From an archaeon (GTDB lineage: Archaea > Aenigmatarchaeota > Aenigmatarchaeia > CG10238-14 > SCSR01), in the NCBI GenBank assembly GCA_035288545.1, contig DATEAB010000045.1:1329-65328 (forward strand): a DNA stretch of 64,000 bases, given 5' to 3'. Position 1 is the stretch's first letter, and each line of letters starts with the position of its first letter. Positions 35,385-50,877 of this stretch are shown piece by piece. The notes beneath the pieces are model-generated. The model was not told the DNA's origin, searched no databases, and was given only the letters and a program-made list of their open reading frames with translations. Both the position numbers and the translations under genes were made by a program.

Positions 35385-35642
35385 ATGAACGACGAGAACC
35401 ACTTCAAGGAAAGGATAGAGGAAATTTTAGCGAAGCATCCAGAAGGTTTATCTATAGCCGAAATTTCTCGACTTCTTGGCGCGCATAGACACACAGTTAC
35501 CAAATATATCCAATTTCTAATGGGTGCTGGAGTAATTTATCAACGCGATCTCGGCACTGTGAAATTGCATTACTTAGCAAGCAAACTCCCCGAGAAAGAA
35601 AAGCTGCTTCTTGAAAAATTAAACAGGCGGGGTAAAAAATGA
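35385..35642 (+). CDS. Small winged-HTH transcriptional regulator
   Basis: 85 aa. LSIAEISRLLGAHRHTVTKYIQFLMGAGVIYQRDLGTVKLHY is an HTH plus wing. Stop overlaps the start of the giant gene (ATGA). Confidence 0.6.
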   Translation: MNDENHFKERIEEILAKHPEGLSIAEISRLLGAHRHTVTKYIQFLMGAGVIYQRDLGTVKLHYLASKLPEKEKLLLEKLNRRGKK

Positions 35643-38600
35643 AAGTTAATAAAATTATTGCTAATAGAATTATTCTTCTTGCTGCAGTCTTCATCTCATT
35701 TTCATTAATGGGAATTTTTGTTAGTTTAATTCTCTTTGCCGAACCTGCTAAAGCAGAAGTAAGAGTTTGGAGATACAATGCTACTAATGCAAGTCTTTTT
35801 TCCGTGTTTAATAAAAGTGATGATGACACGACAACTCCACCTGCTTGGACTTCAGGATGGGACGGATCAAACGTTAGTGCTAGTTATTATGCAAACGTTT
35901 TAGGTGCTCAAGGCACTGGTATTAACGTTACTTCAGGTGGTCAGAATGACGAACCTTGGGTGAGATTTAATGTAACTATCATTCAAAACAAGTCGCAAAT
36001 TGTTTGGGTGCATGTCTCATTGACGCAGAGGAAAAATTCTTTGGCAGATGGAGGCGAAGATTGCACTTATATTATGGCTAATTATACTTCCTCTGGAGGT
36101 ACGGGACAGTGGTTTAAATTTGCCTCCGATGTCACAGGCATAACAGATACACAAAGATCCTTTAATCTTTCACGTCTGACTGACTCTGATCAGTTTGAAA
36201 ATATTACGGATGGTTATGCAACAGGAAAAAATCTACAAGTCGGTAATCTTGTAATAAGAGCAAACGGTATTAATGAAGATGCTGATGAAGGATGTGTTGT
36301 TACAAACGCTAGCGTACATGTTGGATATGACGACACTGCGCCGATATGGAGCAATGCAACGAACAATTTCACGTACGCCTATCCGAGCATAAAAACTGTT
36401 GCTGCCATGAGAGGTGAACTTATTAACATTTCTGCAAACGTGACCGATAACTACGGCGTGTTTACAGCATGGCTTTTGACAAACGAAACTGGTGGAGACA
36501 GAAACTACACGTACGACCAGCTTGCAAATTCTTCAAACTACACGATAAGAATTTTGGGTGGAGGGTCGATAATAGACCAAGCTCATAACACAACTACTGA
36601 AGGTGCGATGGTTAACTGGACTTGGCAAAACATGACAGGCGCCCCACGTGCAATCAAATGGCATATTTTTGTTAACGACACAGCAAACAACACGAACGGA
36701 ACTACTAACGGCGCGAGCGGAATCGCCGATATAGGAAACTTCACGATGTGGGGATGGGCAAACGTTACTCCTCCTAACTGGCTAAGTTCACAAATGGTGC
36801 CTGCGTCTGCAACTCCAGGCAATGTAGTTTACATACAAGTCAATGTGAGTGACGTGAACTTGACATGGCTAGAGCCAATAAATAGTTACAACGTAACTTT
36901 CTTTTACCGCCAAGAACCAGGAAATTATGTTTCACTTGGAGCCAACTGGACAAATTCTTCAGGAATTGCTGGATTTTACTGGGACACTACTGGCTTGTCA
37001 GGTGGAAGATATTTCCCTATGGCAAACATAACTCACAATGCAACTCTTTTCTACAACACAACTTATGTTCACAATAGCACAAACGGGACTATCGATCTTG
37101 CGGCAGCAGCTGTTGTTAACTACGGTAATGGTACGCTTCAAGTAGGCGTCAGCTCGAGTACAGATAGAGCACAAACTGTGAAAAGAGCACCGATCATCAA
37201 TCTTGTACAGAATCCGATAACCGCCCAAATAGTTGGCCTTTTCAAGTCATTAACAAATGCAATAAACGCCCTGACAAGCATACCTGCAATTTTTGCGCCT
37301 CTAAGACTTTCAATCATATCACCAATTTTGTCCACTCCAATTTCTAACTTTTTCACACAAGTGAAATCAATAGCTCAAGCCATAACTTCAAATTTCGTTT
37401 CTTCAAATCTCGGATATATTTCAAGATCAATAGCAAACGCAATAACAACTTCTCCTTTAACTGCAAGAATAGTTTCCTTAATAAAAATTATAACATCTCC
37501 ATTTGTTTTTGCATTTCAAACCATTGCTGGAAAAGTTTTGCAATTTCAAACATCACTCACATTAAGCGTGACGTCAACCGCTTCAAGAATATTTACAGGA
37601 GTCAGACCGATATCGAATGCAATTACATTTTCTACAATAACTGCCAGAATAACGAATTTCGGCAGAAGCCTGATTAACGCGTTATCATTTAACACAATTG
37701 CAACAAGAACTGCATCGTTCTTCAGAACAATCTCTCAGCCATTTACATTTACTACTCAAGTAACGGGCGTGTTCGCGCAGGGCGTTCAAGTTATTAACAG
37801 AGCTGTGGAACTGGCACTTTCAATAACCAATACAGCAACAAGAATTTTCACAGCGGTAACATTTCCAACACAGCAGCTTTCTTTCACAACATTAGTGCAG
37901 AGAATAACATTGCTAAACAAAGCTTTAACCAACACACTTTCATTTAACGCTCTAGCAATTAGATCAGCAACGTTTCTAAGAATTGCATCTCAATCATCCA
38001 CCTTCTTAACAAACGTTACAACTGCAATAACTATACTCACGTCACGAGTTGCTACTTTAACGATTTCTATGATAAACACAGCAACAAGAATTTTCACAGC
38101 GGTAACATTTCCAACACAGCAGCTTTCTTTCACAACATTAGTGCAGAGAATAACATTGCTAAACAAAGCTTTAACTAACGCAATATCATTTAACACAATT
38201 TCTTCCAGAATTGCGATATTTTCTCGTCAAGTTTCCCAACCCTTTGTTTTCAGTTTCGATCTTTTCACTAGAGTAATTGTTGGAGGAATTGCAGAAAGAA
38301 CTGCTGCTTTGCAAATATCATTAAGTAATTCGGCATCAGCTGTTTTAACTGCAGCACGTTTTCCAACATCAGCAATAACTACAAACACAATAGTATTAAG
38401 AACGCAACTTCTTTTCAAAGCACTTTCACAAACTCTAAACTTCTCAACAATATCGGCAAGAATACTCTCAACAACGAGAACAGTCTTCACAAACTTAACA
38501 TTCTTAACTTCGAGCATTAGGACAAGAATAGTACCAAGAGTAACAACTGCAGCGATTACGTTCTCTAACGCAATTGAAAAATCATTATTATTTGTAAGAC

Positions 38601-40153
38601 CGATAACAGCGCAAATAACTTTTGCTCAAAATGCAATAAAGCAACTTTCCTTCTTTAGAACAATCACTCAAACTATTAATTTAAATGACTTGGTTATAAG
38701 AAGTCAGCCATTTTTGAGAATTGTCACAGGAACTTTCAGATTTAATTTCGGAGCAACTGCTGTAAATCAAACTGGAACCACCACTACCACAACATCCTCT
38801 GCTGGTCCAGGCCCAGCACCAAGTGCAGGCAGTGGAGCAGGCAGTGGAGCAGGCGGTGGTGCAGCCGCTGCCCCAGGAATTCCTATCTCGATACTAGCAC
38901 CACCACCGTCATTCATTCCAACCCCAACGGTTGCAATTGACTTTACACAAATAGAAGTGCTGCAGGAAGTAGTTCCGGATCAAGCTCAAAACATATCGTT
39001 TGAAATTAAGAACAAAGTCAACACGACTCTGGGCAATGTTACTGTCACTTTCAGTGGAGTGCCTGAAGATTGGATTAAAGAAAAACTTGTTGGCAAGAGT
39101 CTTAATCCAAATGAAAAAACAGAATTCGAAATCCCCGTATCGCCATCTCGAGGCACAGGGAGTGGGGATTATCGTGTGGATATTAGTGTAAAAGCCGGAG
39201 GAGTCGTCGATAAAGGATTTTTCATAATTCGTGTCAAACCTAACGCAGGAGAAACCAACGCACCTTCTGTGACAAGGTCAGTTGTGGTGAACAGTGAGGA
39301 GAAAAAGACAACCTTCACATTAAATGTTGTAAATGTGAAAGGAACAGACACAGTAGAAGTGCAAGAAGATATACCAAAAACAATTGCGAACAGCACAAAG
39401 GAAATATTTTTTGACACTCCGCCGACAAAGATAATAAAGGACGATCCGATTGTCGAATGGCAACTCAAAAATTTCAAGAAAGGAGAGAGCAGGATCATCA
39501 AATATTCTGTTCAAAAAATTTTGGTAGATTACGCCCCGTATGTTTACTTCCCATTGAAGCAATTTAGCATATCTTCCAAATCAACATTAGAAAACTTCAA
39601 GTTGCTACTGTTTGACATTCCACCCTTCTATTCGGGACATGCGTCAATTGTTACGTTAAGAATTGAAAACTCAGATTCAAAGTCCCACAACTTCAGCTTC
39701 GCAATGGGACTTCCGGAAAAATGGAGCGTACAGCCGCAGCAGATAAACGAAATTATTGGTGACAACGAGCAAAGGGAATACAAGCTCTCTGTTTATGCTC
39801 CTTCGAGCGAACCTTCTGGAATTCGCATCATTCAGGCTCAATATGCCTGGGATGATTCAGCTGTAATAAGAGAGTATAGTGTGATTGTTTCACAAATAAT
39901 TTCATTTGACACCATAATCTACATCACCATTGTAATAATTGTAGTATCGGCAGCATATTTTGCAATAAAATCCTATATATCTTATAGAGGAACTCCAATG
40001 GAAACCTTACGAAAACTGAGAGCAATAGTAAAAAGCAGGACACCGATTCATCTAGCGCCTCATGAGCATTCCAAACAATACAGTGGCATTTTTTACGACG
40101 CGCTGTATCATTCAAAACATCTGTCGAAAAACAAAAAGGAGAATAAGTTATGA
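35639..40153 (+). CDS. Giant cell-surface protein (1504 aa) with N-terminal signal/TM, N-glycosylation sequon-rich ectodomain, internal tandem repeats, Gly/Ala/Pro linker and C-terminal TM anchor
   Basis: N-terminus MKVNKIIANRIILLAAVFISFSLMGIFVSLILFAEPAKA. Degenerate ~35-40-aa repeats span about aa 520-1010, including two exact 100-nt DNA copies. Linker GPGPAPSAGSGAGSGAGGGAAAAPG. C-terminal TM IIYITIVIIVVSAAYFAIKSYI. Confidence 0.6.
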   Translation: MKVNKIIANRIILLAAVFISFSLMGIFVSLILFAEPAKAEVRVWRYNATNASLFSVFNKSDDDTTTPPAWTSGWDGSNVSASYYANVLGAQGTGINVTSGGQNDEPWVRFNVTIIQNKSQIVWVHVSLTQRKNSLADGGEDCTYIMANYTSSGGTGQWFKFASDVTGITDTQRSFNLSRLTDSDQFENITDGYATGKNLQVGNLVIRANGINEDADEGCVVTNASVHVGYDDTAPIWSNATNNFTYAYPSIKTVAAMRGELINISANVTDNYGVFTAWLLTNETGGDRNYTYDQLANSSNYTIRILGGGSIIDQAHNTTTEGAMVNWTWQNMTGAPRAIKWHIFVNDTANNTNGTTNGASGIADIGNFTMWGWANVTPPNWLSSQMVPASATPGNVVYIQVNVSDVNLTWLEPINSYNVTFFYRQEPGNYVSLGANWTNSSGIAGFYWDTTGLSGGRYFPMANITHNATLFYNTTYVHNSTNGTIDLAAAAVVNYGNGTLQVGVSSSTDRAQTVKRAPIINLVQNPITAQIVGLFKSLTNAINALTSIPAIFAPLRLSIISPILSTPISNFFTQVKSIAQAITSNFVSSNLGYISRSIANAITTSPLTARIVSLIKIITSPFVFAFQTIAGKVLQFQTSLTLSVTSTASRIFTGVRPISNAITFSTITARITNFGRSLINALSFNTIATRTASFFRTISQPFTFTTQVTGVFAQGVQVINRAVELALSITNTATRIFTAVTFPTQQLSFTTLVQRITLLNKALTNTLSFNALAIRSATFLRIASQSSTFLTNVTTAITILTSRVATLTISMINTATRIFTAVTFPTQQLSFTTLVQRITLLNKALTNAISFNTISSRIAIFSRQVSQPFVFSFDLFTRVIVGGIAERTAALQISLSNSASAVLTAARFPTSAITTNTIVLRTQLLFKALSQTLNFSTISARILSTTRTVFTNLTFLTSSIRTRIVPRVTTAAITFSNAIEKSLLFVRPITAQITFAQNAIKQLSFFRTITQTINLNDLVIRSQPFLRIVTGTFRFNFGATAVNQTGTTTTTTSSAGPGPAPSAGSGAGSGAGGGAAAAPGIPISILAPPPSFIPTPTVAIDFTQIEVLQEVVPDQAQNISFEIKNKVNTTLGNVTVTFSGVPEDWIKEKLVGKSLNPNEKTEFEIPVSPSRGTGSGDYRVDISVKAGGVVDKGFFIIRVKPNAGETNAPSVTRSVVVNSEEKKTTFTLNVVNVKGTDTVEVQEDIPKTIANSTKEIFFDTPPTKIIKDDPIVEWQLKNFKKGESRIIKYSVQKILVDYAPYVYFPLKQFSISSKSTLENFKLLLFDIPPFYSGHASIVTLRIENSDSKSHNFSFAMGLPEKWSVQPQQINEIIGDNEQREYKLSVYAPSSEPSGIRIIQAQYAWDDSAVIREYSVIVSQIISFDTIIYITIVIIVVSAAYFAIKSYISYRGTPMETLRKLRAIVKSRTPIHLAPHEHSKQYSGIFYDALYHSKHLSKNKKENKL
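37200..38700 (+). repeat. Intragenic tandem repeat array (degenerate ~105-125-nt units; two 100-nt copies identical at 37829 and 38078)
   Basis: The string aatacagcaacaagaattttcacagcggtaacatttccaacacagcagctttctttcacaacattagtgcagagaataacattgctaaacaaagctttaac occurs twice, 249 nt apart. Flanking units share the protein pattern ...T(A/I)(T/S)RI..F.R.(I/V)SQPF.F... Confidence 0.7.
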
Positions 40154-41400
40154 GAGCTAGAAGTATTGCAATAATTTCGTTGATTTTAATTGCAATTTTG
40201 GTTTCAGCACTTTCAGATGTGTTTACTGTAAGCGCGCAAGAGAAGCTAGCCGAAATTTACACTTTAGCCTACGAGCCAGAAAAACCGGTCGTTCTTGAAA
40301 GTATTCAGTTTACAGTTGGGGTGAAGAACAATGAAAATCAATTACGAAATTACAGACTGGAACTCATAATAACGAAAGATGGAATATTCAAGGATTCGCA
40401 AGAGTTCACATTTAATTTGAAACCTGAATCAAGTACAGCATTTTCTCCAAACTATATTCCTGACGACATAAATGATTTTGATCTTATCACAAAACTTTAT
40501 GACGCAACCACTTCTCAACTTTTAGATTTGAAAACTTTGAAATTCAGAGTGGTTAGCGAAATAGGGCCATTTGATTTGGAAGTAAACGTTCCGTCTAAAT
40601 TTATAAAAGCAAACTCCATTGCACCGGTAATTCTAACTCTTTCAAATAAGGGAATCAATGGAACAGATATAAACGTCGAGATTGAATTGAAATGTGTTAA
40701 TCAAAGCAATATTAGAAGTTCATTCTTTTTCTTCATTCCAACGACCTCTGTGGAAACAAAAATAACTCCCATTCAAACTTGTGATGAGGAAGGTCCACAC
40801 GAAATATCTGCGAGCATAATACTTTTCAACAAGACATGGATATCTTCGGCCAATCAATTTTTCCTTAATAAAACTTATCAGGAACTTCTTTTTGATGTTC
40901 CAACTAAGATTAACATTAATGCCGGTGAGTCAAAAATATTCGACGTGCAAATTCGCAACACGGGAACGACCACTCTTCATAACCTAAGACTTCTCGTTTC
41001 AATAATCTCAAATAACTGGATAAAAATTTCTCCGCAAGCAGTCACCCAGTTGAATCCCGGAGAATTTTCAATATTTGTCGTAAACATAACAGTGCCAAAA
41101 GATGCATCATCACAAGAATTTCCAGTTGGAATAGCAGCGGCCGCCGACGAGTTGCTGACAAGAAAGGAGACAACTTTTAATGTGGCGGCTCTATCGGCCC
41201 TCCCGCAGATATTAAATATTTCTAGTAAAGAAACTATTCCAAAAATTGTTCTGCCAAGAATTTTAACCGATAATGCAACTTACATTCTTATCGCAGTTTT
41301 AATTTTGGTTGGCATTTTTGCATTAATAAAAACGATCGAGGTACAGCGTAGAAGCAGAAGGGAGGAAGTCGTTAGAAAGTTGAAGGATCTGATTGGTTAG
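40150..41400 (+). CDS. Secreted protein with C-terminal TM anchor (hypothetical cell-surface protein)
   Basis: 416 aa. Signal MRARSIAIISLILIAILVSALS, C-terminal TM YILIAVLILVGIFALI, then a basic tail. 4-nt overlap with the giant gene. Confidence 0.45.
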   Translation: MRARSIAIISLILIAILVSALSDVFTVSAQEKLAEIYTLAYEPEKPVVLESIQFTVGVKNNENQLRNYRLELIITKDGIFKDSQEFTFNLKPESSTAFSPNYIPDDINDFDLITKLYDATTSQLLDLKTLKFRVVSEIGPFDLEVNVPSKFIKANSIAPVILTLSNKGINGTDINVEIELKCVNQSNIRSSFFFFIPTTSVETKITPIQTCDEEGPHEISASIILFNKTWISSANQFFLNKTYQELLFDVPTKININAGESKIFDVQIRNTGTTTLHNLRLLVSIISNNWIKISPQAVTQLNPGEFSIFVVNITVPKDASSQEFPVGIAAAADELLTRKETTFNVAALSALPQILNISSKETIPKIVLPRILTDNATYILIAVLILVGIFALIKTIEVQRRSRREEVVRKLKDLIG

Positions 41401-41511
41401 TCGATTAGCTGATCAGTTGCTTGATTAGCTGATCGATTAGTTGAATTTAATTGCAGCAAAACAAAATTTAATTATGAAAAGTTTGCAGGAAAAGAAACGG
41501 GGGTAGGATGA

Positions 41512-42537
41512 GTGGGAAAGGTAATCGGAGTTTTTTCAGGAAAAGGTGGAGTTGGAAAGACGACACTCGTTGCTAATTTGGCAACTTCTCTGACGAAGAA
41601 CTTTAATAAGAAAGTCGTTGTCGTTGACAGTAATTTTTCGACAAGCCATCTCGGATTGCATTTTGGTTTGTATGAAGAGCCGAAAGTAACTCTCAGGGAC
41701 GTTATTCTTGAAAATGAGTCGTTGGTTTCAGCATTTTACATTCATCCATCCACAGGAGTGCGATTGATTCCCGCGCCCATCAGTGGTAGTCTTGACGAAG
41801 TAGTCGTGAATGGACTCGCAAATGTGGTCGAACAGCTCAAAGAAGACAACGACATTGTTATTCTTGATGCTGCGCCAGGATTAGGAAGAGAAGTTATTAC
41901 TACGATGAAATCGATTGATGAAGCCTTGATTATTGCGACTCCTGATATTCCTTCCATCACGGATGCACTCAAAACAACAAATCTAATAAAAAAAGTTAAC
42001 GACAAAATAAATATTTCTGGTGTGATAGTGAATAGAGTCAGAAATGAAAAGTATGAGCTGACGAGAAAGGAAATAGAATCTGCGTGCAATACAAATGTTG
42101 TAACTCACATACCAGAAGATTCAAAAGTTCCTGAGTCGATTGCAAAAGGGGTACCACTTATAGAGCTCCATCCCTATTCAAAAGCGAGTGTTGCTTTTGG
42201 CAGACTCGCAGCAGCAATGGTTGGTCAGACTTATGAGCCCAGAAGTTTTGTTTACGCTTTAATGAAACTTTTAGGAATTGTAAAAGAAGGGTATGTTAAG
42301 ATACCGCCGAGAATTGAAAGGCAACAGAGAGTAAAGAAAGTGCGATTGAAAAAAGACGAAGAAGAGAAACAAACAAAACAACAAAAAGAAAAAGGAAAAG
42401 GGAGAGAAAAGGAAGATGAAATGGAAGACGTAAAAAAATTACATGAAGAAGTTGAAGAATCAATAAAGAGTGACATAAAGAAAAGATTAGCGATGAAGAT
42501 AAAAGAAAAATTGAAGGAAAAGGGAGTTGGGGAATGA
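41512..42537 (+). CDS. MinD/ParA-family ATPase (TadZ/CpaE-like) with K/E-rich C-terminal tail
   Basis: GTG start 8 nt after GGGGGTAGGA. Deviant Walker A GKGGVGKTT at residues 10-18. ...IVILDAAPGLG is the Walker B region. Last ~70 aa are K/E-rich and low-complexity. Confidence 0.7.
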   Translation: MGKVIGVFSGKGGVGKTTLVANLATSLTKNFNKKVVVVDSNFSTSHLGLHFGLYEEPKVTLRDVILENESLVSAFYIHPSTGVRLIPAPISGSLDEVVVNGLANVVEQLKEDNDIVILDAAPGLGREVITTMKSIDEALIIATPDIPSITDALKTTNLIKKVNDKINISGVIVNRVRNEKYELTRKEIESACNTNVVTHIPEDSKVPESIAKGVPLIELHPYSKASVAFGRLAAAMVGQTYEPRSFVYALMKLLGIVKEGYVKIPPRIERQQRVKKVRLKKDEEEKQTKQQKEKGKGREKEDEMEDVKKLHEEVEESIKSDIKKRLAMKIKEKLKEKGVGE

Positions 42538-42927: not shown

Positions 42928-42969
42928 TAAAATATTTTTACTTTATAATGCAAAACTAATTCTAATATT

Positions 42970-44298: not shown

Positions 44299-44747
44299 AA
44301 ATATTCAAAAATGAAAAAGGATTTTTCTTTGCTGTTGATTCGCTAATTGCTGTAGTGATAGCTTTCATCTTTATTGTTGGAGTTGTCTTTTTTGTTAATC
44401 GCGCTTCGGAAGACAAGTTTGCTAACTTGTATCTTGAGAAAGTTGCTAATGACATTCTTTTTGTGATGAATAAAAACGAAACACTGCAGAGTTTGGACAA
44501 CAATAAGATTCAAGGAGTTCTTGCAGGAGTTCTGCCGAAAAATCTAGCTGCTAACCTAAACGTAACTACTTTCAAATGCACCGACCAGAGCTGCAATACT
44601 TTCACGTACAACAACAACATAAACATTCTAACTCCTGCGAATGCTGTTGAAAGCGATGCAGTGATTGCGCGGACAGGTTTTGTGACTTTCAAAGCAGGTA
44701 AGATAGATCTTTTTGCAACTGCCGAGCTCAGGATTTGGTTGATATGA
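44289..44747 (+). CDS. Type IV pilin-like protein with class III signal peptide
   Basis: ...KNEKGFFFAVDSLIAVVIAFIFIVGVVFF. Overlaps the upstream gene. Confidence 0.45.
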   Translation: MVVKIFKNEKGFFFAVDSLIAVVIAFIFIVGVVFFVNRASEDKFANLYLEKVANDILFVMNKNETLQSLDNNKIQGVLAGVLPKNLAANLNVTTFKCTDQSCNTFTYNNNINILTPANAVESDAVIARTGFVTFKAGKIDLFATAELRIWLI

Positions 44748-45685
44748 GTGCGATTAAACTGAAGGCAAAAGGTGTTGTGTCTTCGCTCATAGTTCTGTTA
44801 AGTTTTGTCACAATTTTATCGCTTGCAATTGTTTTTTCCAACAGGAGCAGCGAGACTTCTGATATAGTTGCAAAGGGCGTCATTTCCGACAGGATTTTCT
44901 ACAAATATTCTGCATTGCAGGAGGCATTGCTGAAAATACTAAAAGGAGTTGCTGCTGATTTCGGCGGAATAAATGTCTCGACTCAGGAAAACGGTTTTAA
45001 CATCGTGACAATTGATGAAGTTCTGCCAAGAGTAACGTCTAGTTTCAAGACAGAAGCTGACAAGTTTGAAAGATTCGCAGAACAAAAAATGAATGAGACA
45101 AATCTTTTTGTCGACCTAAGCGTTACTAATTTCATCTGCGGCGCACTGACGATCAATCCGTACGGAATGAATTACACTCATTATCCTTCAGACTGTTCCA
45201 ATCAGCCAGCACAGACAAGAATTGTTTCAGACCCTGGCAATAGTTGGAATTATCTTAACAGTTATGAGTTAGTTTTTCGTCCTAATGGAGCAATTGCAAA
45301 CGCAAATCTAGTTGGATGGAACGGTCCTGGCTGCGACAAGGGAAATTTGAAACTGAATATAACAATTATTGGCACAGACACCACTTTCGGGCCGGTCGTG
45401 ACGACGACAGATCCTGCGAAAATGTGCAGATACAACGCAGATAACCTAAACTGTCCGGGAGGACTCGGCTTTATCCATGTGATTCACAACCAAAACTCCG
45501 GTGACAATGACAAAGGAGTGCTGGACGTTCAGGTACAGACTAATTGCAACGTCACGACAAGAGTCAGAATCAATTTGACAGACATTCCTGGCAAGCTCGA
45601 AGTTGTTTTTCCGGACAATCAAGCAATAAAGGTAAAAGAAACGCTATATGAAATAGAGAAGAACAGTTCGATTAGAATTTCATAA
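44735..45685 (+). CDS. Larger pilin-like protein (minor pilin or tip candidate)
   Basis: 316 aa. ...KLKAKGVVSSLIVLLSFVTILSLAIVF N-terminus. Cys- and Asn-rich C-terminal domain. Confidence 0.45.
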   Translation: MVDMSAIKLKAKGVVSSLIVLLSFVTILSLAIVFSNRSSETSDIVAKGVISDRIFYKYSALQEALLKILKGVAADFGGINVSTQENGFNIVTIDEVLPRVTSSFKTEADKFERFAEQKMNETNLFVDLSVTNFICGALTINPYGMNYTHYPSDCSNQPAQTRIVSDPGNSWNYLNSYELVFRPNGAIANANLVGWNGPGCDKGNLKLNITIIGTDTTFGPVVTTTDPAKMCRYNADNLNCPGGLGFIHVIHNQNSGDNDKGVLDVQVQTNCNVTTRVRINLTDIPGKLEVVFPDNQAIKVKETLYEIEKNSSIRIS

Positions 45686-45710
45686 AAGGAGAAAATAGAA
45701 AGGGATTGAA

Positions 45711-46739
45711 TTGGCAGGCATTTTGGATTGGTTGAGAAAAATATTTTTTGGAAGAACTGCAGAAGAAAATAAAGCAGCGACGATAGGCAGAATTCTGAGA
45801 GGAAAAAGCAGAAGAAGACTTGCAAAGAAAAAAAGAAAAAAAAAGTTAGTGAAAATCAGGGTAAGAAAAATTCCTCGACGCGTGAAAAGATTAAAACCAA
45901 AAATTAAGAAGCCACTCATAAAGTTCAGCGTAACAAGAAGGCCAAGAGCGGTGCAACAGAAGCCGCAGCAAAAACAGCAGCCAGCCCAACTATCTCAGGC
46001 AACTCCTTTGATGCAGAAAGCAATGATAGCCAAGACGTCGAAGAAGCCAGAAATTCACAAACTCCCTGAAGAGATAACACGAGAAGTGATTGTTTCTGAC
46101 ATAATGGTGAAAAATGTTTACAAGGTGAAGACAGACGATACGCTCAGTTATGTTGTTCGTCTTTTTGCTGACAAAGGAATAAGCGGCGCCCCGGTTATAC
46201 ATGACAACACTTTCGTTGGAATAATCAGCGAGAGTGACGTGTTGAAAGTAATAGGAGCTAAAGATCTGCTCAGCATAGGAGGACTCGGATTGAAACGTCT
46301 GGGGGAAATAAAAGTCGAGCAGGCGATGAACAGAAATTCAGTGACAGTCAATGAGTACACCTCTCTCGCCCAGGCTGCTGACTTGATGAACAAGTATGAC
46401 GTGACGAGGCTGCCAGTGCTTGACGAGCGGCGCAACATTGTAGGCATACTTACAAGATCAGATATAATCCGAGGAATATCGAAAGAAATTTTGTTCAGAG
46501 TTTTGAGGAGAAGGCCAGAAGAGATTGCAAAGCTGCGATTGAAAATCGAAACAGACATCGACGAGATTTTGAGAATTGTTGAGAGGAAGGGACTGATCAG
46601 CGTCGAGGAGATTCAGAAGAAACTAAACATCCCGGAAGATAAGATAGAAGAATGGGGAAAAGTTTTGGAAAAGCACGATCTTGTTGAAGTTTTCTATCCC
46701 CCTATCGGAAAGCCTGAGCTGAGAAAGAAACCGAAGTGA
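45711..46739 (+). CDS. CBS-domain pair protein with a basic N-terminal region and C-terminal winged-helix-like domain
   Basis: 342 aa. K/R-rich N-terminus, then two CBS motifs (VSDIMVKNVYKV...GISGAPVIHDN...; ...VEQAMNRNSVTVNE...RLPVLDERRNIVGILTRSDI). Confidence 0.65.
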   Translation: MAGILDWLRKIFFGRTAEENKAATIGRILRGKSRRRLAKKKRKKKLVKIRVRKIPRRVKRLKPKIKKPLIKFSVTRRPRAVQQKPQQKQQPAQLSQATPLMQKAMIAKTSKKPEIHKLPEEITREVIVSDIMVKNVYKVKTDDTLSYVVRLFADKGISGAPVIHDNTFVGIISESDVLKVIGAKDLLSIGGLGLKRLGEIKVEQAMNRNSVTVNEYTSLAQAADLMNKYDVTRLPVLDERRNIVGILTRSDIIRGISKEILFRVLRRRPEEIAKLRLKIETDIDEILRIVERKGLISVEEIQKKLNIPEDKIEEWGKVLEKHDLVEVFYPPIGKPELRKKPK

Positions 46740-46769
46740 TTTTGAAAGGCATGCAACAAGTGAATAGTT

Positions 46770-48329
46770 ATGAAAGTGAAAGATTTTGGAAAAGAAAAAG
46801 ATGAGAACAAGGTAATTGAAAAATATTTCGTGGAATCTTTCAAAGTAAAGGCAGAAGTCAATATAGAAAAATCGCTGAAGGAATTCGTGCCCGTTTACGT
46901 TTTGAAAGTTCCGGATATCGAGCCAGGAACGCTCGCATTGATGGATCTGATACGTGAAAAAATTTTGACTGAGATTTCCATAAAAACTTCCGAGCTGTTG
47001 AACCCTCGCGCGCTTGAAGAGCTGAAGGACAAATTTTTCGAACGGGGGTTCGATTTGTTAAGGAGAGAACTACCACATGCGAATGAAGATGTGTGGGAAT
47101 TTATTTCAGGTTCCCTCGTTCATGAAATGCTTGGACTTGGGAAAATCGAGCTGCTGATCAATGACGGCGAGCTTGAAGATATTGTCATCAATAATGCTGA
47201 TGAGCCCGCGTGGGTTTACCACAAGAAGTATGGATGGCTGAAAACTAATGTCTACGTTCCGAACGAGCTGCAGATTCAGAATTACGCATCAATCATCGGA
47301 CGTCGTGTAGGAAGGCAGATCACAACCCTCTCACCTCTCATGGACGCGCATTTGACGACAGGAGACAGAGTCAACGCAACACTCTTCCCTCTCAGCACCA
47401 AAGGAAACACGATCAGCATAAGAAAATTCAGAAGAAAGCCATGGGTCATTACAGACTTGCTCGAGGCACACACTCTTAGTTTCGATGTTGCGGCTTTACT
47501 TTGGTCGGCTGTTCAATATGAAATGAATACAATTGTTTCTGGTGGAACAGCAACAGGAAAAACAACTTTCCTCAATGTCCTCACACCTTTCATACCGCCG
47601 AACCAGAGAATAATCAGCATAGAGGACACTCGTGAGATCCAGCTGCCACGTTTCTTGCATTGGGTACCGCTGACAACGCGTGAGCCGAATCCGGAAGGAA
47701 AAGGCGAGATAAGCATGCTTGACTTGCTGGTCAACAGCTTGCGAATGAGACCTGACAGGATTATAGTAGGTGAGATTCGTCGTGCCGAACAGGCAGAAGT
47801 CCTATTCGAGGCAATGCACACAGGTCACAGCGTTTACGCCACGCTGCATGCAGATACTGCCGAGCAAACGTACAGGCGACTGGTGAACCCGCCGATAAAT
47901 GTTCCTATAGCTTTGCTCGAGGCGCTTCACCTGAATGTTGTGATGTTTCGTGACAGAAGACGCGGCATAAGAAGACTATTTCAAATCGCGGAAATTGTTC
48001 CGATTCCGGACATAGAAAAGGAGAGGGCGACGATAAATGTTTTGTACAAATGGCATCCTGTGCATGACAAGCTTGTAAAGCTACATGAAAGCAAGCGAAT
48101 AGTTGACGAGCTCAAGCTGCACACTGGGATGACCGACAGGGAGTTCAAGCAAGACTTGAATGACAAAGAAAAAGTTTTGAAGTGGATGCTGAAGCAAAAT
48201 ATCAGAACAATTGACGGAGTCGGGAAAGTTATTTTTGAGTATTATTTCGATCCTAGTAATGTTTTAAATGTTGTTAGGAAGAATTTGAAGCCGACTGCGA
48301 TTGTTCCACCGGATTTGCTGAAGGAATAG
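46770..48329 (+). CDS. Type II/IV secretion system ATPase (TadA/FlaI/VirB11 family)
   Basis: 519 aa. Walker A SGGTATGKTTFLNVL, Asp box, Walker B RPDRIIVGEIR, and His box HTGHSVYATLHA. Confidence 0.85.
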   Translation: MKVKDFGKEKDENKVIEKYFVESFKVKAEVNIEKSLKEFVPVYVLKVPDIEPGTLALMDLIREKILTEISIKTSELLNPRALEELKDKFFERGFDLLRRELPHANEDVWEFISGSLVHEMLGLGKIELLINDGELEDIVINNADEPAWVYHKKYGWLKTNVYVPNELQIQNYASIIGRRVGRQITTLSPLMDAHLTTGDRVNATLFPLSTKGNTISIRKFRRKPWVITDLLEAHTLSFDVAALLWSAVQYEMNTIVSGGTATGKTTFLNVLTPFIPPNQRIISIEDTREIQLPRFLHWVPLTTREPNPEGKGEISMLDLLVNSLRMRPDRIIVGEIRRAEQAEVLFEAMHTGHSVYATLHADTAEQTYRRLVNPPINVPIALLEALHLNVVMFRDRRRGIRRLFQIAEIVPIPDIEKERATINVLYKWHPVHDKLVKLHESKRIVDELKLHTGMTDREFKQDLNDKEKVLKWMLKQNIRTIDGVGKVIFEYYFDPSNVLNVVRKNLKPTAIVPPDLLKE

Positions 48330-48392
48330 TCAAAGAACAGTCGAGGAATAGTCAAAGAACAGTTAGGTCAGAAAAAATAGGAGTTGAAATAA

Positions 48393-49298
48393 TTGGCGCT
48401 GATAAAAAATATTCCATTCGTACCTTTTTCAATGTACCAAGCAGTCAGAATATCTAGAAAAATTGGCTTGATAGGAACAGGGAGTCGTGCGTCAAAACTT
48501 TTCCCAAAACTTTCGCTCTATCTTTTGCAGACAGGAATTTCATTCGAGGACAGGGAATACACGGCGATAGCAATTCTCGCGGCAATGATATGGTTCATAA
48601 TTCCTGCATCAATTTTCACAGTCCTCTACTTTTTCGTTTTGCTTCCTTCAAACTTCATTACAATTGCTCTGCTTTCATCATTCGGCCTTTCCTTCCTTTC
48701 ATTCTTTTACGTCATTTTGTTTCCGCAAGTTGTCATCACGAGAAGAATCAAAGATCTTGAGAAAAATCTTCTCTTCGCTCTTCGTCATTTGCTAATCCAA
48801 GTCCGTTCAGGAATTCCACTGTTCGACTCGATGGTTTCTGTCTCGAAAGCAGGATACGGTCTTATCTCAGAAGAGTTCGAATTCGCAGTCAAACAAATCA
48901 GCACAGGAGTTCGGGACATCGACGCGCTGGAAGAAATCGCGCTGAAGAATCCTTCTCTTTATTTCCGCCGCTCGATGTGGCAGATAACGAACGCAATACG
49001 CTCAGGAGCGGACATCGCGAACACACTCGATACCATTATTGGCAATCTTGCTAATGAGCAGAGAATTCTTGTCCGTCGTTACGGCTCGCAGCTAAACCCC
49101 CTTGCATTCATGTACATGATGATGGGAATTATTTTGCCAAGCCTCGGAATATCTCTGATGATAAGTCTCTCCTCATTTTCTGGACTCAAGGTCGAAAGAA
49201 TTTTCTTCTGGGCAATTTTAATTTTCCTTATATTTTTCAAGTTCAATTTCCTAGGTATCGTCAAAAGCCGCAGACCATCAGTGGAGGTTTACGTCTGA
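48393..49298 (+). CDS. Pilus platform membrane protein with a single T2SS-F domain (TadB-like)
   Basis: 301 aa, three TM segments. The cytoplasmic region SLYFRRSMWQITNAIRSGADIANTLDTIIGNLANEQR is typical of GspF/TadB/FlaJ domains. Confidence 0.65.
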   Translation: MALIKNIPFVPFSMYQAVRISRKIGLIGTGSRASKLFPKLSLYLLQTGISFEDREYTAIAILAAMIWFIIPASIFTVLYFFVLLPSNFITIALLSSFGLSFLSFFYVILFPQVVITRRIKDLEKNLLFALRHLLIQVRSGIPLFDSMVSVSKAGYGLISEEFEFAVKQISTGVRDIDALEEIALKNPSLYFRRSMWQITNAIRSGADIANTLDTIIGNLANEQRILVRRYGSQLNPLAFMYMMMGIILPSLGISLMISLSSFSGLKVERIFFWAILIFLIFFKFNFLGIVKSRRPSVEVYV

Positions 49299-50284
49299 TG
49301 TATCAATTCATCTATGCAATAAGCCCGAAGGGGTACAAGAAGTGGATTGACAGGTATCTTCAATACTGCGACTTCAAAATATCCACGATACGCCTGATAG
49401 GATTCTTCTTTCTGTTTGGCCTTGGCCTGAGTTTTTCGGTCAGCTTCATTTTGTTTTTGCTCAACTATGTCGACACTCTTTTATTTTTTGTAACTTGGCT
49501 GGGAATTTTTGTCACATTCGAAATTGCTACTCATGGGATTTTGGTATTCATTGCTGACAGTCGCGCTAACTTTGTAGAAGAAATACTTCCTGACGCTCTT
49601 CAAATCATTTCTGCGAACTTGCGATCGGGTCTCACACCAGACAAGGCGATACTGACATCTGCTCGACCAGAGTTCGGACCTCTCGAGAAGGAAATGAAAT
49701 TCGTTGCCAAGGAAACACTTTCAGGGCGTCCGCTCGAGGAGTCTCTCAAAGAAATCGCGAAGAAAATAAATTCCAAAATTTTAGATAAGACAATTACACT
49801 TTTGATTGAAGGAATGGCAAAGGGTGGAAGCTTAACACAGCTCCTAGACAGCATCTCAGAAGATATTCGCCAAATAAAAATCCTGCGTCGCGAAATAAAA
49901 TCATATGTAATGATGTACGGCATTTTCATATTCTTCGCAATAGTCATCGGCGCACCTCTTCTATATTCGGTCTCTACGTTTCTTGTCGAAACTATGAGCA
50001 GGTTCGGCAGTAGCATCGAGCTTCAGCAACTCTTCGAATCACAGTCATCCCTTCCAATATTCAAATCCACTGTGACAGATGTCACCCCTGACTTTTTGAT
50101 ATTGTATTCAATTCTTTCCATCTCCGTCACGGCGATTTTCGGAAGTTTGCTGATAGGTCTAATACAGGAAGGAAGCGAGAAGGCAGGAATGAAGTTCATA
50201 CCTTTGCTGCTTCCTCTTTCTTTGGCAGTGTTTTTCATCGCCCGCATTGCTCTTCAGAATTCATTCGGAACGCTAATTGTTTAA
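49298..50284 (+). CDS. Pilus platform membrane protein with a single T2SS-F domain (TadC-like)
   Basis: 328 aa. 1-nt overlap (TGATG) with the upstream gene. ISANLRSGLTPDKAILTSARPEFGPLEKEMKFVAKE is the T2SS-F domain cytoplasmic motif. Confidence 0.65.
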   Translation: MYQFIYAISPKGYKKWIDRYLQYCDFKISTIRLIGFFFLFGLGLSFSVSFILFLLNYVDTLLFFVTWLGIFVTFEIATHGILVFIADSRANFVEEILPDALQIISANLRSGLTPDKAILTSARPEFGPLEKEMKFVAKETLSGRPLEESLKEIAKKINSKILDKTITLLIEGMAKGGSLTQLLDSISEDIRQIKILRREIKSYVMMYGIFIFFAIVIGAPLLYSVSTFLVETMSRFGSSIELQQLFESQSSLPIFKSTVTDVTPDFLILYSILSISVTAIFGSLLIGLIQEGSEKAGMKFIPLLLPLSLAVFFIARIALQNSFGTLIV

Positions 50285-50409
50285 TTGGTTAGCTGAGGAA
50301 AAGATGCTGATGTGCAGTTGTACTGCAGTTGTAGTGCAATTGTGCAATCGTACAAAGTTGTATAATTTATATGCCCCTAAAACCAATTCTAAATTAAAGA
50401 GGATGTTTA

Positions 50410-50877
50410 ATGAGACTATTCGGGAAATTAAAAGGTCAAACGGCCCTTGAGTACTTGATGACGTATGGATGGGCCATCCTGATAGTTATAATAGTCGTCG
50501 GTGCGTTGTTCGCACTGGGACTTACAAAACCATGTCGATGGGTCGGAACTCAAGTTCGTGAATTCGCCGATTTCAGAGTAGAAAATCCGCGAGCAACAAC
50601 TTCTCAATTGGCATTCGACTTATCTAGCCTAAAGCCACAGACAGTAAATCTAACATCAGTAACAGTTTCTGGTGACTTGAGTGGAAACACCGTTTCGCCA
50701 ACTCTACCAGCAAGCCAGGGAACGACAGCAGTAAGATACACAGTCACGACAAGTTCTGGTTCACTAGTGACAAATGATTGCTACAATGCTGATGTTGTTA
50801 TAACTTACAACTTAGCAACAGCAGGTGGACAACAATCATTCAACACGACTGGTAAAATATCAGGAATAATATCGTAA
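50410..50877 (+). CDS. Type IV pilin (probable major pilin) with class III signal peptide
   Basis: MRLFGKLKGQTALEYLMTYGWAILIVIIVVGALFALG gives the canonical KG/QxALEYLM pattern. 155 aa with a Thr/Ser-rich globular part. Confidence 0.65.
   Translation: MRLFGKLKGQTALEYLMTYGWAILIVIIVVGALFALGLTKPCRWVGTQVREFADFRVENPRATTSQLAFDLSSLKPQTVNLTSVTVSGDLSGNTVSPTLPASQGTTAVRYTVTTSSGSLVTNDCYNADVVITYNLATAGGQQSFNTTGKISGIIS

Follow-up and report, generated by a model that had tools for sequence, protein, structure and literature searches.

A predicted type IV pilus module conserved across DPANN archaea and related to the Epd/Tad branch

The window, i.e. the whole 64,000-nt stretch of DNA analysed, carries 15 plus-strand ORFs (g1–g15) between positions 35385 and 50877, in agreement with gene calls made independently on identical public contigs. 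Nearly all domain assignments of the initial annotation were borne out by profile searches. The features are listed below; a slash marks the prepilin cleavage site.

35385..35642, plus strand: g1, 85-aa winged-HTH protein; doubtful member of the pilus system
35639..40153, plus strand: g2, predicted 1504-aa membrane-anchored surface glycoprotein; doubtful member of the pilus system
40150..41400, plus strand: g3, predicted 416-aa secreted Ig-like (NEW3/CARDB-like) protein with C-terminal TM anchor; doubtful member of the pilus system
41512..42537, plus strand: g4, archaeal MinD/ParA-family ATPase; candidate positioning or regulatory accessory
42538..42927, plus strand: g5, 129-aa charged, probably coiled-coil cytoplasmic protein, abutting g4
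42970..43377, plus strand: g6, minor pilin, family p6, 135 aa; site KA/QAALEYL
43374..43799, plus strand: g7, minor pilin, family p7, 141 aa; site KA/QVGVETL
43801..44298, plus strand: g8, minor pilin, family p8, 165 aa (ATG 43801); site KG/QITSTEF
44289..44747, plus strand: g9, minor pilin, family p9, 152 aa; site KG/FFFAVD
44744..45685, plus strand: g10, largest conserved minor pilin, family p10, 313 aa (ATG 44744); site KG/VVSSL
45711..46739, plus strand: g11, basic disordered N-terminus, CBS pair, long helix and C-terminal winged-helix "W" domain
46530..46736, plus strand: W domain of g11 (aa ~274-342)
46770..48329, plus strand: g12, VirB11/PilB-family assembly ATPase, 519 aa
48393..49298, plus strand: g13, platform protein A, one T2SSF domain; N-terminal half of ArlJ/PilC-type platforms
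49298..50284, plus strand: g14, platform protein B, one T2SSF domain; C-terminal half of ArlJ/PilC-type platforms
50313..50372, plus strand: candidate control region of the pilin gene, with tandem repeats and a TATA-like box
50410..50877, plus strand: g15, probable major pilin, 155 aa; site KG/QTALEYLMTYGWA

The genes are tightly spaced. The g1/g2 and g2/g3 junctions are 4-nt overlaps, a 111-nt gap separates g3 from g4, g4 and g5 abut (0 nt), and 42 nt lie between g5 and g6. Further downstream g6/g7 overlap by 4 nt, g7/g8 are either 1 nt apart (ATG 43801) or overlap by 14 nt (TTG 43786, giving a g8 of 170 aa), g8/g9 overlap by 10 nt and g9/g10 by 4 nt (ATG 44744); the starts at ATG 43801 and ATG 44744, as called on the public contigs, are the likely ones. 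Gaps of 25, 30 and 63 nt follow g10, g11 and g12, respectively, g13/g14 overlap by 1 nt and g14 is separated from g15 by 125 nt. Since the intergenic stretches of the block contain TATA-like boxes and repeats, their pattern suggests at least four transcription units, namely g1–g3, g4–g5, g6–g14 and g15. Thus, of the packed, operon-like set of 15 co-oriented genes originally described, the ORFs and their orientation stand, but the block is probably not one operon.

The class III cleavage sites of g6–g10 and g15 are conserved family by family in alignments, upholding the earlier call of pilin-like genes with class III signal peptides. The p6 logo (64 loci) displays [KR][GA]/Q in 85%, E at +5 in 85% and Y at +6 in 81%, p7 (61 loci) has Q at +1 in 84% and E at +5 in 85%, and p8 (54 loci) combines Q at +1 (83%) with an acidic residue at +6 (D 83%). 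The p9 family, with the logo G/F.F[ST]LD, is hypervariable in size, ranging from ~130 aa to more than 1600 aa. Its relatives in loci L001, L058 and L070 contain VWA and Laminin_G_3 modules, while g9 is a bare version without these vWA/LamG adhesin modules. Family p10 (26 loci) reads K G/[VIL].F[TS] with no conserved acidic residue; g10 itself has none at +5 or +6, and its ectodomain is Cys-rich. Four of the six pilins bear the EppA/Flp-type signature [KR][GA]/Q...E[YF]. The conserved sites of the locus agree with the EppA-substrate signature, +1 Gln and +5 Glu, and with the Epd sites KGQV and KGQI (PMC4371748). A search for a prepilin peptidase found none within the 64-kb window.

The pilin g15 contains the prepilin motif G/XXXXEY, read as KG/QTALEY. 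In its family (61 loci) Q at +1 reaches 96% and E at +5 94%, and MTYGW is invariant. The AF2 model (pLDDT 86.8) consists of a helix (8-35) followed by a beta-sandwich, and its top fold matches are the solved structures of archaeal type IV pilins 6NAV, 8FK7 and 8Q30. The earlier call of g15 as probable major pilin is credible. Upstream of the gene lie three tandem copies of TGCARTTGTR with 11-nt spacing (50313-50344), a motif with 6 matches in the window vs 0.65 expected, as well as the TATA-like sequence TATAATTTATAT at 50361-50372.

The ATPase g12 (T2SSE, E 3e-35) scored 277 bits against the FlaI model (cut-off 550) and 200 against the TadA model (cut-off 373). Its best full-length match among solved structures is afGspE with 244 bits over residues 13-500, N- and C-terminal domains included, followed by FlaI (194) and CpaF (175). 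The enzyme displays a CpaF-type loop, TREPNPEGKG, and the corresponding TRxPNxEGxG occurs in 21 of the 21 DPANN ATPases examined, two residues longer than in afGspE and FlaI. Across 292 core columns g12 is 37% identical to CpaF, while afGspE and FlaI each reach 33% to CpaF. A four-point comparison without an Epd reference places the DPANN ATPases outside afGspE+FlaI and yields nothing finer. As evidenced by the score far under the FlaI cut-off and by the loop, g12 was rejected as FlaI. The closest relatives of the ATPase, at 57-73% identity, come from Aenigmatarchaeota-like MAGs, so that the small-genome, possibly host-dependent archaeon envisaged earlier is a member of the DPANN.

The platform is encoded by two genes. 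The protein g13 (T2SSF, E 3e-16) matched positions 11-249 of 555 of an ArlJ model and g14 (T2SSF, E 1e-16) positions 193-464 of 465, and the two are 24% identical over 148 aa. A separate g13-type gene lies downstream of the ATPase in 75 loci, and A followed by B as separate ORFs is found in 70; the split is therefore real and not a frameshift of one gene.

Directly upstream of the motor, g11 combines a CBS pair (E 2e-30) with the W domain. Its AF2 model (pLDDT 81.8) shows the CBS pair, a helix and a winged helix, and the fold matches are adenine-nucleotide- or SAM-binding CBS proteins. The W domain, present in 970 clusters, adjoins the ATPase gene in 67-73 of 80 loci and lies directly upstream of it in 67, with a spacing of mostly -4 to +5 nt; hence the CBS protein is a regular part of these loci, contrary to the earlier view. 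Fusion partners of W vary between CBS, the Aenigmatarchaeota-type partner, coiled coils, degenerate KaiC-like domains, TM segments and, in one relative (L004), MinD. The domain gives weak TrmB/MarR/HTH matches, the N-terminal regions of many W proteins are strongly basic, and the most conserved residues, EEW..ILE and YP..G.P, include the wing. Among the accessory genes of the DPANN pilus module, that of the W protein is the best conserved across loci, and in most cases its translation is coupled to that of the ATPase. We predict g11 to be a regulatory partner of the ATPase.

The MinD/ParA-family protein g4 has a deviant Walker A motif (GKGGVGKT) and a charged C-terminal extension of ~90 aa. 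It scored 203 bits against TIGR01969 minD_arch (cut-off 201.75) and only 43 bits against the CpaE homologue model, and the TadZ N-terminal domain is absent. Only 3 of the 80 related loci have a MinD gene at a distance of up to 10 kb from the ATPase. The enzyme is an ordinary archaeal MinD rather than the TadZ-like pilus component first proposed; it is 32% identical to the MinD part of the MinD::W fusion in L004. Profile searches with g5 gave weak matches to coiled-coil families only.

The upstream genes g1–g3 are of a different kind. The small protein g1 matches several HTH families with E 1e-5 to 1e-6, among them HTH_IclR, RPA_C and HTH_23 with E 1e-5 to 4e-6. The giant g2 is built from an N-terminal hydrophobic signal, a sequon-rich part, ~26 copies of 20-aa periodic repeats at ~aa 520-1050 (periodicity 20/40/80 aa), a linker of G/A/P/S, one or more NEW3 Ig-like domains and a TM segment at the C-terminus; it has 47 N-glycosylation sequons, and one NEW3/NPCBM_assoc domain was matched (E 7e-10). 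Lacking a class III signal, it was ruled out as a pilin. It is a near-orphan with 2 partial homologues in 5.8e9 proteins, and no pilus genes were found on the contig of its partial homologue. The NPCBM_assoc match of g3 is weak and under the cut-off (E 8e-5). None of g1, g2, g3 and g5 has a homologue in the 80 related loci, and in the closest relative (L001) genes for MCM and aIF2-beta occupy the place of g1–g5. The 27-35 kb region upstream of the block contains further unrelated surface proteins, so surface genes simply cluster in this part of the window. In these comparisons g1–g3 show no link to pili, and they may form a separate cell-surface unit of regulator, giant glycoprotein and Ig-like membrane protein that merely adjoins the pilus genes. 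Their inclusion in the pilus system by the initial annotation is therefore not sustained.

By contrast with the 15-gene block as a whole, g6–g15 (42970-50877) constitute a ten-gene module that recurs in the same order, p6-p7-p8-p9-(p10)-W-ATPase-A-B-pilin, in ~70 of 80 DPANN loci from Aenigmatarchaeota, Iainarchaeota, Woese-, Pace-, Nano-, Nanohalo-, Micr- and Parvarchaeota. The W-to-ATPase and A-to-B junctions, mostly -4 to +5 nt, are typical of operons. Judged by gene order, only these ten genes are one predicted conserved machine. Pilus clusters of this kind are shared by almost all DPANN archaea, tiny organisms that probably depend on a host.

The architecture is already known from the literature. 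Type IV pilus loci of DPANN (cluster 2) were described by Hamm et al. 2024 (PMC11291902) and Makarova et al. 2019 (PMC6393860). The accessible text of PMC11291902 reports loci with a CpaF-like ATPase, TadC-like platform genes and an adjacent cytoplasmic gene that are conserved across Nanohalo-, Woese-, Pace-, Nano- and Aenigmarchaeota. That text does not define an ordered set of five minor pilins, a W domain or separate halves of the platform. These loci match g11–g14, with the same order in 80 loci. The nanohaloarchaeal "coiled-coil protein" beside the ATPase is probably a W-domain protein (winged helix plus coiled coil, as in L072). The window differs in that the fusion partner of W is a CBS pair and not a coiled coil and in that MinD and a separate coiled-coil gene lie upstream.

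[quoted passage not shown] The published clade 1/System 1 model comprises two TadC genes, at least five minor pilins, MinD and adhesins (PMC4858521; bioRxiv 10.64898/2026.04.22.720090), and System 1 is reported in DPANN. On the other hand, the Epd pilin of Methanococcus maripaludis has ~60-70 aa without a globular domain, whereas g15 has 155 aa with a beta-sandwich; EppA is absent from the 64-kb window, and a W/CBS protein is not described for Epd. With bacterial Tad/Flp systems (T4cP) the locus shares the split platform, a single ATPase with the TRxPNxEGxG loop, the G/XXXXEY motif (KG/QTALEY) and a MinD/ParA-family partner. However, the window is without secretin and TadD, g4 has the score of an archaeal MinD and no TadZ N-terminal domain, g12 is under the TadA cut-off and the pilin is long. 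The bacterial gene order is tadA-tadB-tadC. TadB aligns with the platform C-half and TadC with the N-half (Denise et al.), opposite to the N-half then C-half order of the window. The proposed Tad/Epd resemblance thus holds for the split platform, the +1 Gln/+5 Glu-Tyr motif, the CpaF-type loop and the MinD-family ATPase.

System 2 (clade 2; H. volcanii PilB3/PilC3-PilA and A. fulgidus GspE2, PDB 2OAP) includes the best structural match of g12, and for it MinD use has been proposed and large adhesin-like genes are frequent. Nevertheless, the g12 core is about equally near to afGspE (40%) and FlaI (39%), which share 45% identity between them; the DPANN ATPases fall outside that pair, afGspE is without the CpaF-type loop, and PilA-type pilins are without +1 Gln. 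By analogy, not sequence homology, the five minor pilins with one lacking an acidic residue are like the bacterial T4P/T2SS tip complexes (GspH-K), and p9 with vWA or LamG in relatives, though bare here, is like bacterial pilins carrying vWA modules.

We propose, with a probability of roughly 80%, that g6–g15 encode a type IV pilus machine conserved across DPANN and belonging to an Epd/Tad-related branch, most likely serving adhesion to a host cell or surface, a role suggested by analogy. The locus is thus a fresh example of an already known system, as DPANN loci and Epd/Tad-like architectures were published earlier. If the homology to type IV pili already studied is a guide, the prepilins would be cleaved after [KR][GA] by a peptidase whose gene lies elsewhere, and the five minor pilins would form a priming or tip complex, with p10, without acidic residue, as the likely cap and p9 as the position at which vWA or LamG modules are added in relatives. 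The hexameric ATPase g12 would dock on a g13/g14 heterodimer and drive polymerisation of g15 into a filament. The W domain would dock g11 on the motor, and its CBS pair would sense adenine-nucleotide (or SAM) status and couple pilus assembly to it, while g4 and g5 may position or license the machine.

A motility function is extremely improbable. The best NCBIfam matches of the ATPase and platform proteins are FlaI and ArlJ models, yet their scores are far under the cut-offs (277 vs 550 for FlaI, 20-25 vs 400-550 for ArlJ), the platform is split into two genes, the pilins have +1 Gln sites and no scanned ORF of the window contains ArlH, ArlF/G, ArlC/D/E/X or archaellin domains. Domain content, scores and sites together confirm the earlier view of a type IV pilus system and not an archaellum. 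The machine may instead be real with a main role other than adhesion, i.e. as a retractile filament that takes up DNA or nutrients from the host or as a short pseudopilus that exports proteins. Type IV filaments of the superfamily serve DNA uptake and secretion, import of DNA or nutrients has been proposed for DPANN pili (PMC9563170), CpaF, the single Tad ATPase, drives both extension and retraction according to the accessible text of PMC11300603, and the likeness of the minor pilins to tip complexes would fit. We nevertheless consider this unlikely, as the vWA and LamG modules on p9 of relatives indicate binding, attachment to surfaces is the function of the one Epd pilus that has been studied, and a DNA-binding or ComEC-like component is absent from the locus. 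The tight packing and common orientation of all 15 genes, in turn, could mean a single host-attachment apparatus, with g2 (and g1, g3) as dedicated adhesin and MinD as TadZ equivalent. Because g9 is bare, an adhesin could conceivably be provided in trans; large adhesin-like and S-layer-like proteins are frequent in System 2 and clade 1 loci, and L004 fuses MinD to W. This seems rather improbable, however, given the missing homologues of g1, g2, g3 and g5, the MCM and aIF2-beta genes of L001, the near-orphan g2 and the unrelated surface proteins upstream; TATA-like boxes in the 111-nt and 42-nt gaps suggest separate transcription.

For the W family, including g11, a role as pilus-operon transcription factors, with sensor and DNA-binding winged helix, in place of motor-binding adaptors is possible but doubtful. 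The winged-helix fold with its TrmB/MarR/HTH matches and the basic N-terminal regions are consistent with it. Type Ia ParA proteins use an HTH for autoregulation, and such an arrangement could explain the MinD::W fusion. Yet W genes are translationally coupled to the ATPase in most of the 67 loci, the conserved residues include the wing, and a scaffold would better account for the fusion of W with TM segments, long coiled coils and degenerate KaiC-like (ArlH-like) domains.

Fifteen co-oriented genes on the plus strand (g1-g15, 35385-50877) had been read in the initial annotation as one operon-like adhesive pilus system, and the ORFs and their spacing were confirmed. Identical contigs in public metagenomes (ENA ERZ28563625, scaffold ANAN16-1_SAMN03842437..., and Logan SRR3989342/44) carry the same gene calls. 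The window comes from an archaeal chromosome and includes genes for an archaeal SRP RNA, intron-containing tRNAs, Suf, SOD and topoisomerase VI. Pfam and NCBIfam searches upheld the domain assignments of the block.

Genes of the 35385-50877 block, all on the plus strand.
g1, wHTH protein (Pfam/NCBIfam)
g2, 1504-aa protein with a NEW3 Ig-like domain (Pfam/NCBIfam)
g3, protein with a weak NEW3/CARDB-like match (Pfam/NCBIfam)
g4, archaeal MinD (TIGR01969, 203 bits, cut-off 201.75)
g5, charged protein with coiled-coil-type matches only
g6-g10, minor pilins of families p6-p10
g11, CBS pair (Pfam/NCBIfam), ending in the W domain
g12, T2SSE ATPase (PF00437, E 3e-35)
g13, platform protein A, one T2SSF domain (PF00482, E 3e-16)
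g14, platform protein B, one T2SSF domain (PF00482, E 1e-16)
g15, pilin of family P15

Orientation and packing are operon-like, but at least four transcription units are probable because TATA-like boxes and local repeats lie upstream of g1 and in the g3-g4 (111 nt), g5-g6 (42 nt) and g14-g15 (125 nt) gaps. The GATTAGCTGATC repeats of the g3-g4 gap are not enriched elsewhere in the window. Just upstream of g15 and its TATA-like box (50361-50372), three tandem copies of TGCARTTGTR with 11-nt spacing (50313-50344) form a candidate operator; the motif occurs six times in the window against 0.65 expected.

Relatives of the g12 ATPase with 50-73% identity were found at 80 loci in DPANN MAGs, spanning Aenigmatarchaeota-like genomes (the closest), Iainarchaeota and Woese-, Pace-, Nano-, Nanohalo-, Micr- and Parvarchaeota. 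Gene order across these loci, obtained by tblastn and iterated HMM searches, follows a canonical pattern. Two small pilins (p6, p7) are followed by p8, p9, usually p10, and a W gene, recognized by a conserved domain of about 60 aa at its end or start; then come the ATPase, platform A (~296 aa), platform B (~327 aa) and often P15 (~150 aa). The order of g6-g15 is identical. W lies upstream of the ATPase in 67 loci, mostly at -4 to +5 nt, and platform A lies downstream of it in 75. In 70 loci A is followed by B as a separate ORF, mostly at -4, -1 or +1 nt, and the junctions between module genes are of operon type. The window locus is a complete new copy of a module common to the DPANN lineages sampled, and we assign a probability of about 0.8 to g6-g15 being its core pilus module. 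Synteny with relatives covers g6-g15, whereas tblastn and iterated HMM searches of the 80 loci turned up no homologue of g1, g2, g3 or g5. The first pilin gene of L001, the closest relative, comes directly after genes for MCM and aIF2-beta. Locus L080 carries two modules, and L038 has another ATPase and platform, encoded on the minus strand.

The two platform proteins match different halves of ArlJ-type platforms, g13 the N-terminal and g14 the C-terminal one, and share 24% identity over 148 residues. Two adjacent single-T2SSF platform genes are one of the features by which Epd-like, clade 1 or System 1 loci are recognized. An assembly frameshift splitting one platform gene is ruled out because A and B are separate ORFs in the same order in 70 related loci, so the two single-domain proteins of the initial annotation are genuine. 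Neither protein has a sequence match among solved structures.

A secretion ATPase, T2SSF platform proteins and subunits with class III signal peptides together identify the system as a type IV filament (TFF), and an archaellum was rejected as its identity. The g12 ATPase scores 277 bits against the FlaI model NF058587 (cut-off 550), ArlJ models give 20-25 bits (cut-offs 400-550) and the platform is split; ArlH, ArlF/G and archaellin domains were absent from the window ORFs scanned. Alignments of g12 to FlaI, CpaF and A. fulgidus GspE2 (afGspE) show Walker A, Walker B, Asp and His boxes in GGTATGKTT, RPDRIIVGEIR and TGHSVYATLHA. Among solved structures, afGspE is the best full-length match (244 bits), followed by FlaI (194) and CpaF (175). 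Over 292 shared core columns g12 is 40% identical to afGspE, 39% to FlaI and 37% to CpaF, while afGspE and FlaI share 45% and CpaF is 33% identical to either. A four-point test grouped the DPANN ATPases with CpaF against afGspE with FlaI in 200 of 200 bootstrap resamplings, which places them outside the afGspE+FlaI group and shows only that. As in the NJ analysis, its references were solely afGspE, FlaI and CpaF, transcribed from PDB alignments. All 21 DPANN ATPases examined carry a TR[EQ]PNPEGKG loop whose CpaF counterpart is TRPPNLEGSG and which, like that of CpaF, is two residues longer than the loop of afGspE and FlaI.

Measured against bacterial Tad/Flp systems, g12 stays below the cut-off of the TadA model TIGR03819 (200 bits against 373), and with its 37% core identity to CpaF it is related to the TadA/CpaF family, not a member of it. 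The 15 ORFs and the scanned flanking ORFs encode no secretin RcpA/CpaC or outer-membrane accessories, as expected in an archaeon. The split platform and the CpaF loop recall Tad, and the G/XXXXEY motif (here and below a slash marks the cleavage site) is present, but g15, which carries it, is long. The g4 protein, taken earlier as TadZ-like, is a typical archaeal MinD: its P-loop stands right at the start, its C-terminal tail is charged, and it lacks the N-terminal receiver-like domain of TadZ/CpaE and scores 203 bits with minD_arch against 43 with the CpaE homologue model.

Each pilin family was aligned on its predicted cleavage site, and all six window proteins fit the signature of their family. 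In P15 this is [KR]G/Q[AST]A[LMI]E[YF]LMTYGWA, where position +1 is Gln in 96% of sequences and position +5 is Glu in 94%. Families p6 and p7 share [KR][GA]/Q...E[YF]L; p8 has /Q.FS.D, p9 G/F.F[ST]LD, and p10 KG/[VIL].F[TS] without an acidic residue. Class III signal peptides on the pilin-like genes are borne out by this conservation, and no class III ORF beyond the six was found in the window. A Gln at +1 with an acidic residue at +5 occurs in g15 (KG/QTALE), g6 (KA/QAALE) and g7 (KA/QVGVE), while the acidic residue of g8 (KG/QITSTE) is at +6 and g9 and g10 lack the +1 Gln. The g15 site KG/QTALEY fits the Flp pattern G/XXXXEY, and the motif is seen in g6 as KA/QAALEY; mature Flp pilins are short, however, and g15 is long. 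Gln at +1 with Glu at +5 marks the substrates of EppA, Epd pilins are cleaved at RAQI, KGQV, KGQL and KGQI, and PibD substrates lack the Gln (PMC4371748). By this measure EppA-type sites are present on window pilins.

From an alignment of 69 sequences, AlphaFold2 predicted for g15 (pLDDT 86.8) an N-terminal helix (residues 8-35) and a beta-sandwich. The three solved structures that match this model best are all archaeal type IV pilins, namely 6NAV (S. islandicus pilus), 8FK7 (P. calidifontis) and 8Q30 (S. acidocaldarius Aap); a sequence search of solved structures with g15 gave no match. Because of this modelled fold and its matches, g15 is a credible major pilin, in agreement with the initial annotation and with its P15 signature. 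Some P15 homologues are named "UPF0333 family" by one source. A short major pilin of about 60-70 aa without a globular domain is absent from the window.

The most variable subunit is p9, which ranges from ~130 to >1600 aa and carries vWA and LamG modules in relatives. The window version (g9, 152 aa) is bare. Judged by their domains, the giant forms are likely to be pilus-borne adhesins of the organisms concerned.

Giant modular p9 pilins of related loci (900-1633 aa, vWA).
L001, 4362-7064
L058, 1774-6675
L070, 1802-6253, also LamG-type

No A24 prepilin peptidase was found in the window by a TM scan and Pfam search of multi-TM ORFs or by tblastn with DPANN A24-like proteins, and EppA, the dedicated large peptidase, is likewise absent from it. 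Only seven loci, all nanohaloarchaeal, have A24-like genes adjoining the W gene, in divergent orientation. The proteins match Peptidase_A24 weakly (Pfam 22.3 bits, cut-off 26.5) and contain D..TTDVPD and GGADAF motifs and an inserted soluble region.

A24-like genes of nanohaloarchaeal loci.
L037, L038, L049, L051, L060, L072 and L074, about 8-9 kb, minus strand, ~300 aa, multi-TM

In L013 the pilus module is followed, after a few genes, by one (14112-14966, minus strand) for a presenilin/signal-peptide-peptidase-like membrane protein with YD...GGGD...PAL motifs, judged by eye.

The CBS protein g11 had been considered foreign to described loci. This is incorrect because g11 carries W, the most conserved accessory of the module, and represents its version in this lineage. 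Outside Aenigmatarchaeota-like genomes g11 is conserved only at residues about 278-340, the W domain. An AF2 model of residues 120-342 (pLDDT 81.8) shows a CBS pair, a long helix and a winged helix, the last being W. Its consensus is T.D.L...G..S..E.A..L......IEEW..ILE...L....YP..G.P, and it occurs in at least 970 clusters (50% identity) of a library of 1.84 billion proteins. It matches no Pfam family of its own, giving weak HTH matches only, and a live alternative is that W binds DNA rather than docking onto the motor.

What W is joined to varies by lineage. Of 74 locus proteins, 12 have a CBS pair as partner, as do 21 among the best 144 matches from the library. Nanohaloarchaeota have a long coiled coil instead, for example in L072, and these are probably the "coiled-coil proteins" beside CpaF of PMC11291902, equated by description, not by sequence. 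Some Woesearchaeota have TM segments. The Iainarchaeota locus L069 has two degenerate KaiC-like domains (DUF7504/KaiC) without an evident Walker A, together with C2H2 zinc fingers. In L004 (1-633, on a contig cut at its 5' end) a MinD/ParA domain, 32% identical to g4 (E 8e-25), is fused to W directly upstream of the pilus ATPase; such fusions are rare, since no other was found among the 144 best W-domain proteins.

W proteins of Iainarchaeota type (600-825 aa).
L069, 7545-10022
L070, 7424-9886
L027, L020 and L034

From these fusions we infer that W may dock regulatory modules on the pilus motor. Through it, Aenigmatarchaeota-like genomes, the window among them, would plug in a CBS pair, Nanohaloarchaeota a coiled coil, one Iainarchaeota locus degenerate KaiC/ArlH-like domains and one relative MinD. 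A fold search with the g11 model returned CBS proteins only, and the structural neighbours of its CBS pair are adenine-nucleotide, SAM or c-di-AMP sensors. Pilus assembly or retraction in this organism might then be gated by adenine-nucleotide status, which would link the attachment organelle of a host-dependent cell directly to its supply of energy or nucleotides. The full proposal, in which every Epd/Tad-related pilus ATPase of DPANN has W as its docking partner, inputs are lineage-specific and adenine nucleotides act as the gate here, is tentative, and we consider the odds to be against it.

To our knowledge, neither genetics nor structural work has yet dissected a DPANN pilus, and type IV pili are leading candidates for how these ultrasmall archaea find and hold their hosts. 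The module provides a testable parts list: five minor pilins in a set order whose cleavage signatures differ, a variable p9 adhesin slot, a split platform, a beta-sandwich major pilin and a conserved winged-helix ATPase partner carrying lineage-specific sensor domains. Clade 1/System 1, reported for methanogens, Thermococcales and DPANN, comprises an ATPase, two TadC genes, at least five minor pilins, MinD, EppA and adhesins (PMC4858521; bioRxiv 10.64898/2026.04.22.720090). The window locus has in common with Epd/System 1 the two single-T2SSF platform genes and the +1 Gln/+5 acidic sites; it differs from Epd/Flp, where pilins are short, in its long g15 (155 aa with a beta-sandwich). The CpaF-type loop, split platform and prepilin motif fit the Epd/Tad side of the published tree (PMC6668835). 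Both the Epd-Tad relationship (PMC6668835) and conserved CpaF/TadC loci across DPANN (PMC11291902) have been described before; what the present comparison adds is the signatures of the minor pilins in their order, p9 as the adhesin slot, and W together with the fusions particular to each lineage, CBS in the window among them. Among archaeal systems, that of DPANN could stand nearer to bacterial Tad than methanogen Epd does, because it has the CpaF loop, the G/XXXXEY site, the split platform and a MinD partner in common with Tad; we hold this more weakly than the docking of W.

The initial interpretation of all fifteen genes as one apparatus is partly supported, and its weaker part is the 5' end. 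MinD is encoded within 10 kb of the ATPase in only 3 of the 80 loci and, by gene content, is not conserved in the module. Published clade 1/System 1 models expect a FleN/MinD partner, often encoded elsewhere. A role for MinD in the pilus system is plausible because g4 adjoins the module here and one MinD::W fusion exists; that g4-g5 are accessories of the pilus has, in our estimate, somewhat less than an even chance.

The giant glycoprotein g2 has a hydrophobic N-terminal signal, a G/A/P/S linker, Ig-like domains and a C-terminal TM anchor with a short tail. It contains 47 sequons, 38 of them within the first 500 residues, and a 20-aa repeat, [ILF][ST]F.T...R.....R, occurs about 26 times. Its proposed function as pilus adhesin finds no support: relatives of the pilus module lack it, and among 5.8 billion proteins only two homologues were found, both partial, and no pilus genes share a contig with the better of them (42% over residues 231-493). 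Further surface proteins are encoded between positions 27 and 35 kb of the window, upstream of the block, and the most fitting reading of g1-g3 is thus an adjacent surface unit. That they are parts of the pilus system is improbable, and g2 should not be counted in the apparatus without further evidence. The other 1504-aa ORF (26902-31416) was considered as a paralogue of g2 and rejected, as the two show no similarity. Local G+C of the 26902-31416 ORF, whose protein is sequon-rich, is 0.50-0.51 against 0.35-0.41 in the pilus locus.

Features of the window outside g1-g15.
6225-7904, plus strand, 559-aa protein with ~10 predicted TM segments and no Pfam match
8504-8615, minus strand, intron-containing tRNA
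18920-19015, minus strand, intron-containing tRNA
26902-34315, surface-protein cluster: 1504-aa sequon-rich, 471-aa Ser/Thr-rich with C-terminal TM, and 232-aa proteins
34381-35193, plus strand, NUMOD3-containing protein
50987-51119, minus strand, tRNA-Leu(CAA), anticodon loop interrupted by a 46-nt intron
51037-51873, minus strand, LAGLIDADG_3 protein
56891-59197, plus strand, 768-aa protein with an S_layer_C domain (E 2e-20)
62210-62330, plus strand, intron-containing tRNA

The 3' boundary of the locus is marked by the tRNA-Leu(CAA) gene, which is convergent with g15 and lies 110 nt downstream of it. It was missed by default ARAGORN and by the Rfam gathering search, found by eye and confirmed with aragorn -i. 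A default tRNA scan of the window reported none; the other intron-containing tRNAs come from aragorn -i, which gave Val(CAC) and Gln(TTG) with introns of 24 and 48 nt, respectively, and from Rfam tRNA matches at 62210 and 8504. Two homing-endonuclease-like ORFs flank the g1-g15 block: the NUMOD3-containing one just upstream of g1, and the LAGLIDADG_3 one, whose 3' end runs into the tRNA-Leu gene over its 5' exon and intron. Further downstream, the 768-aa protein with the S_layer_C domain is probably the S-layer protein, and its gene is followed by genes for GT2 glycosyltransferase and membrane proteins.
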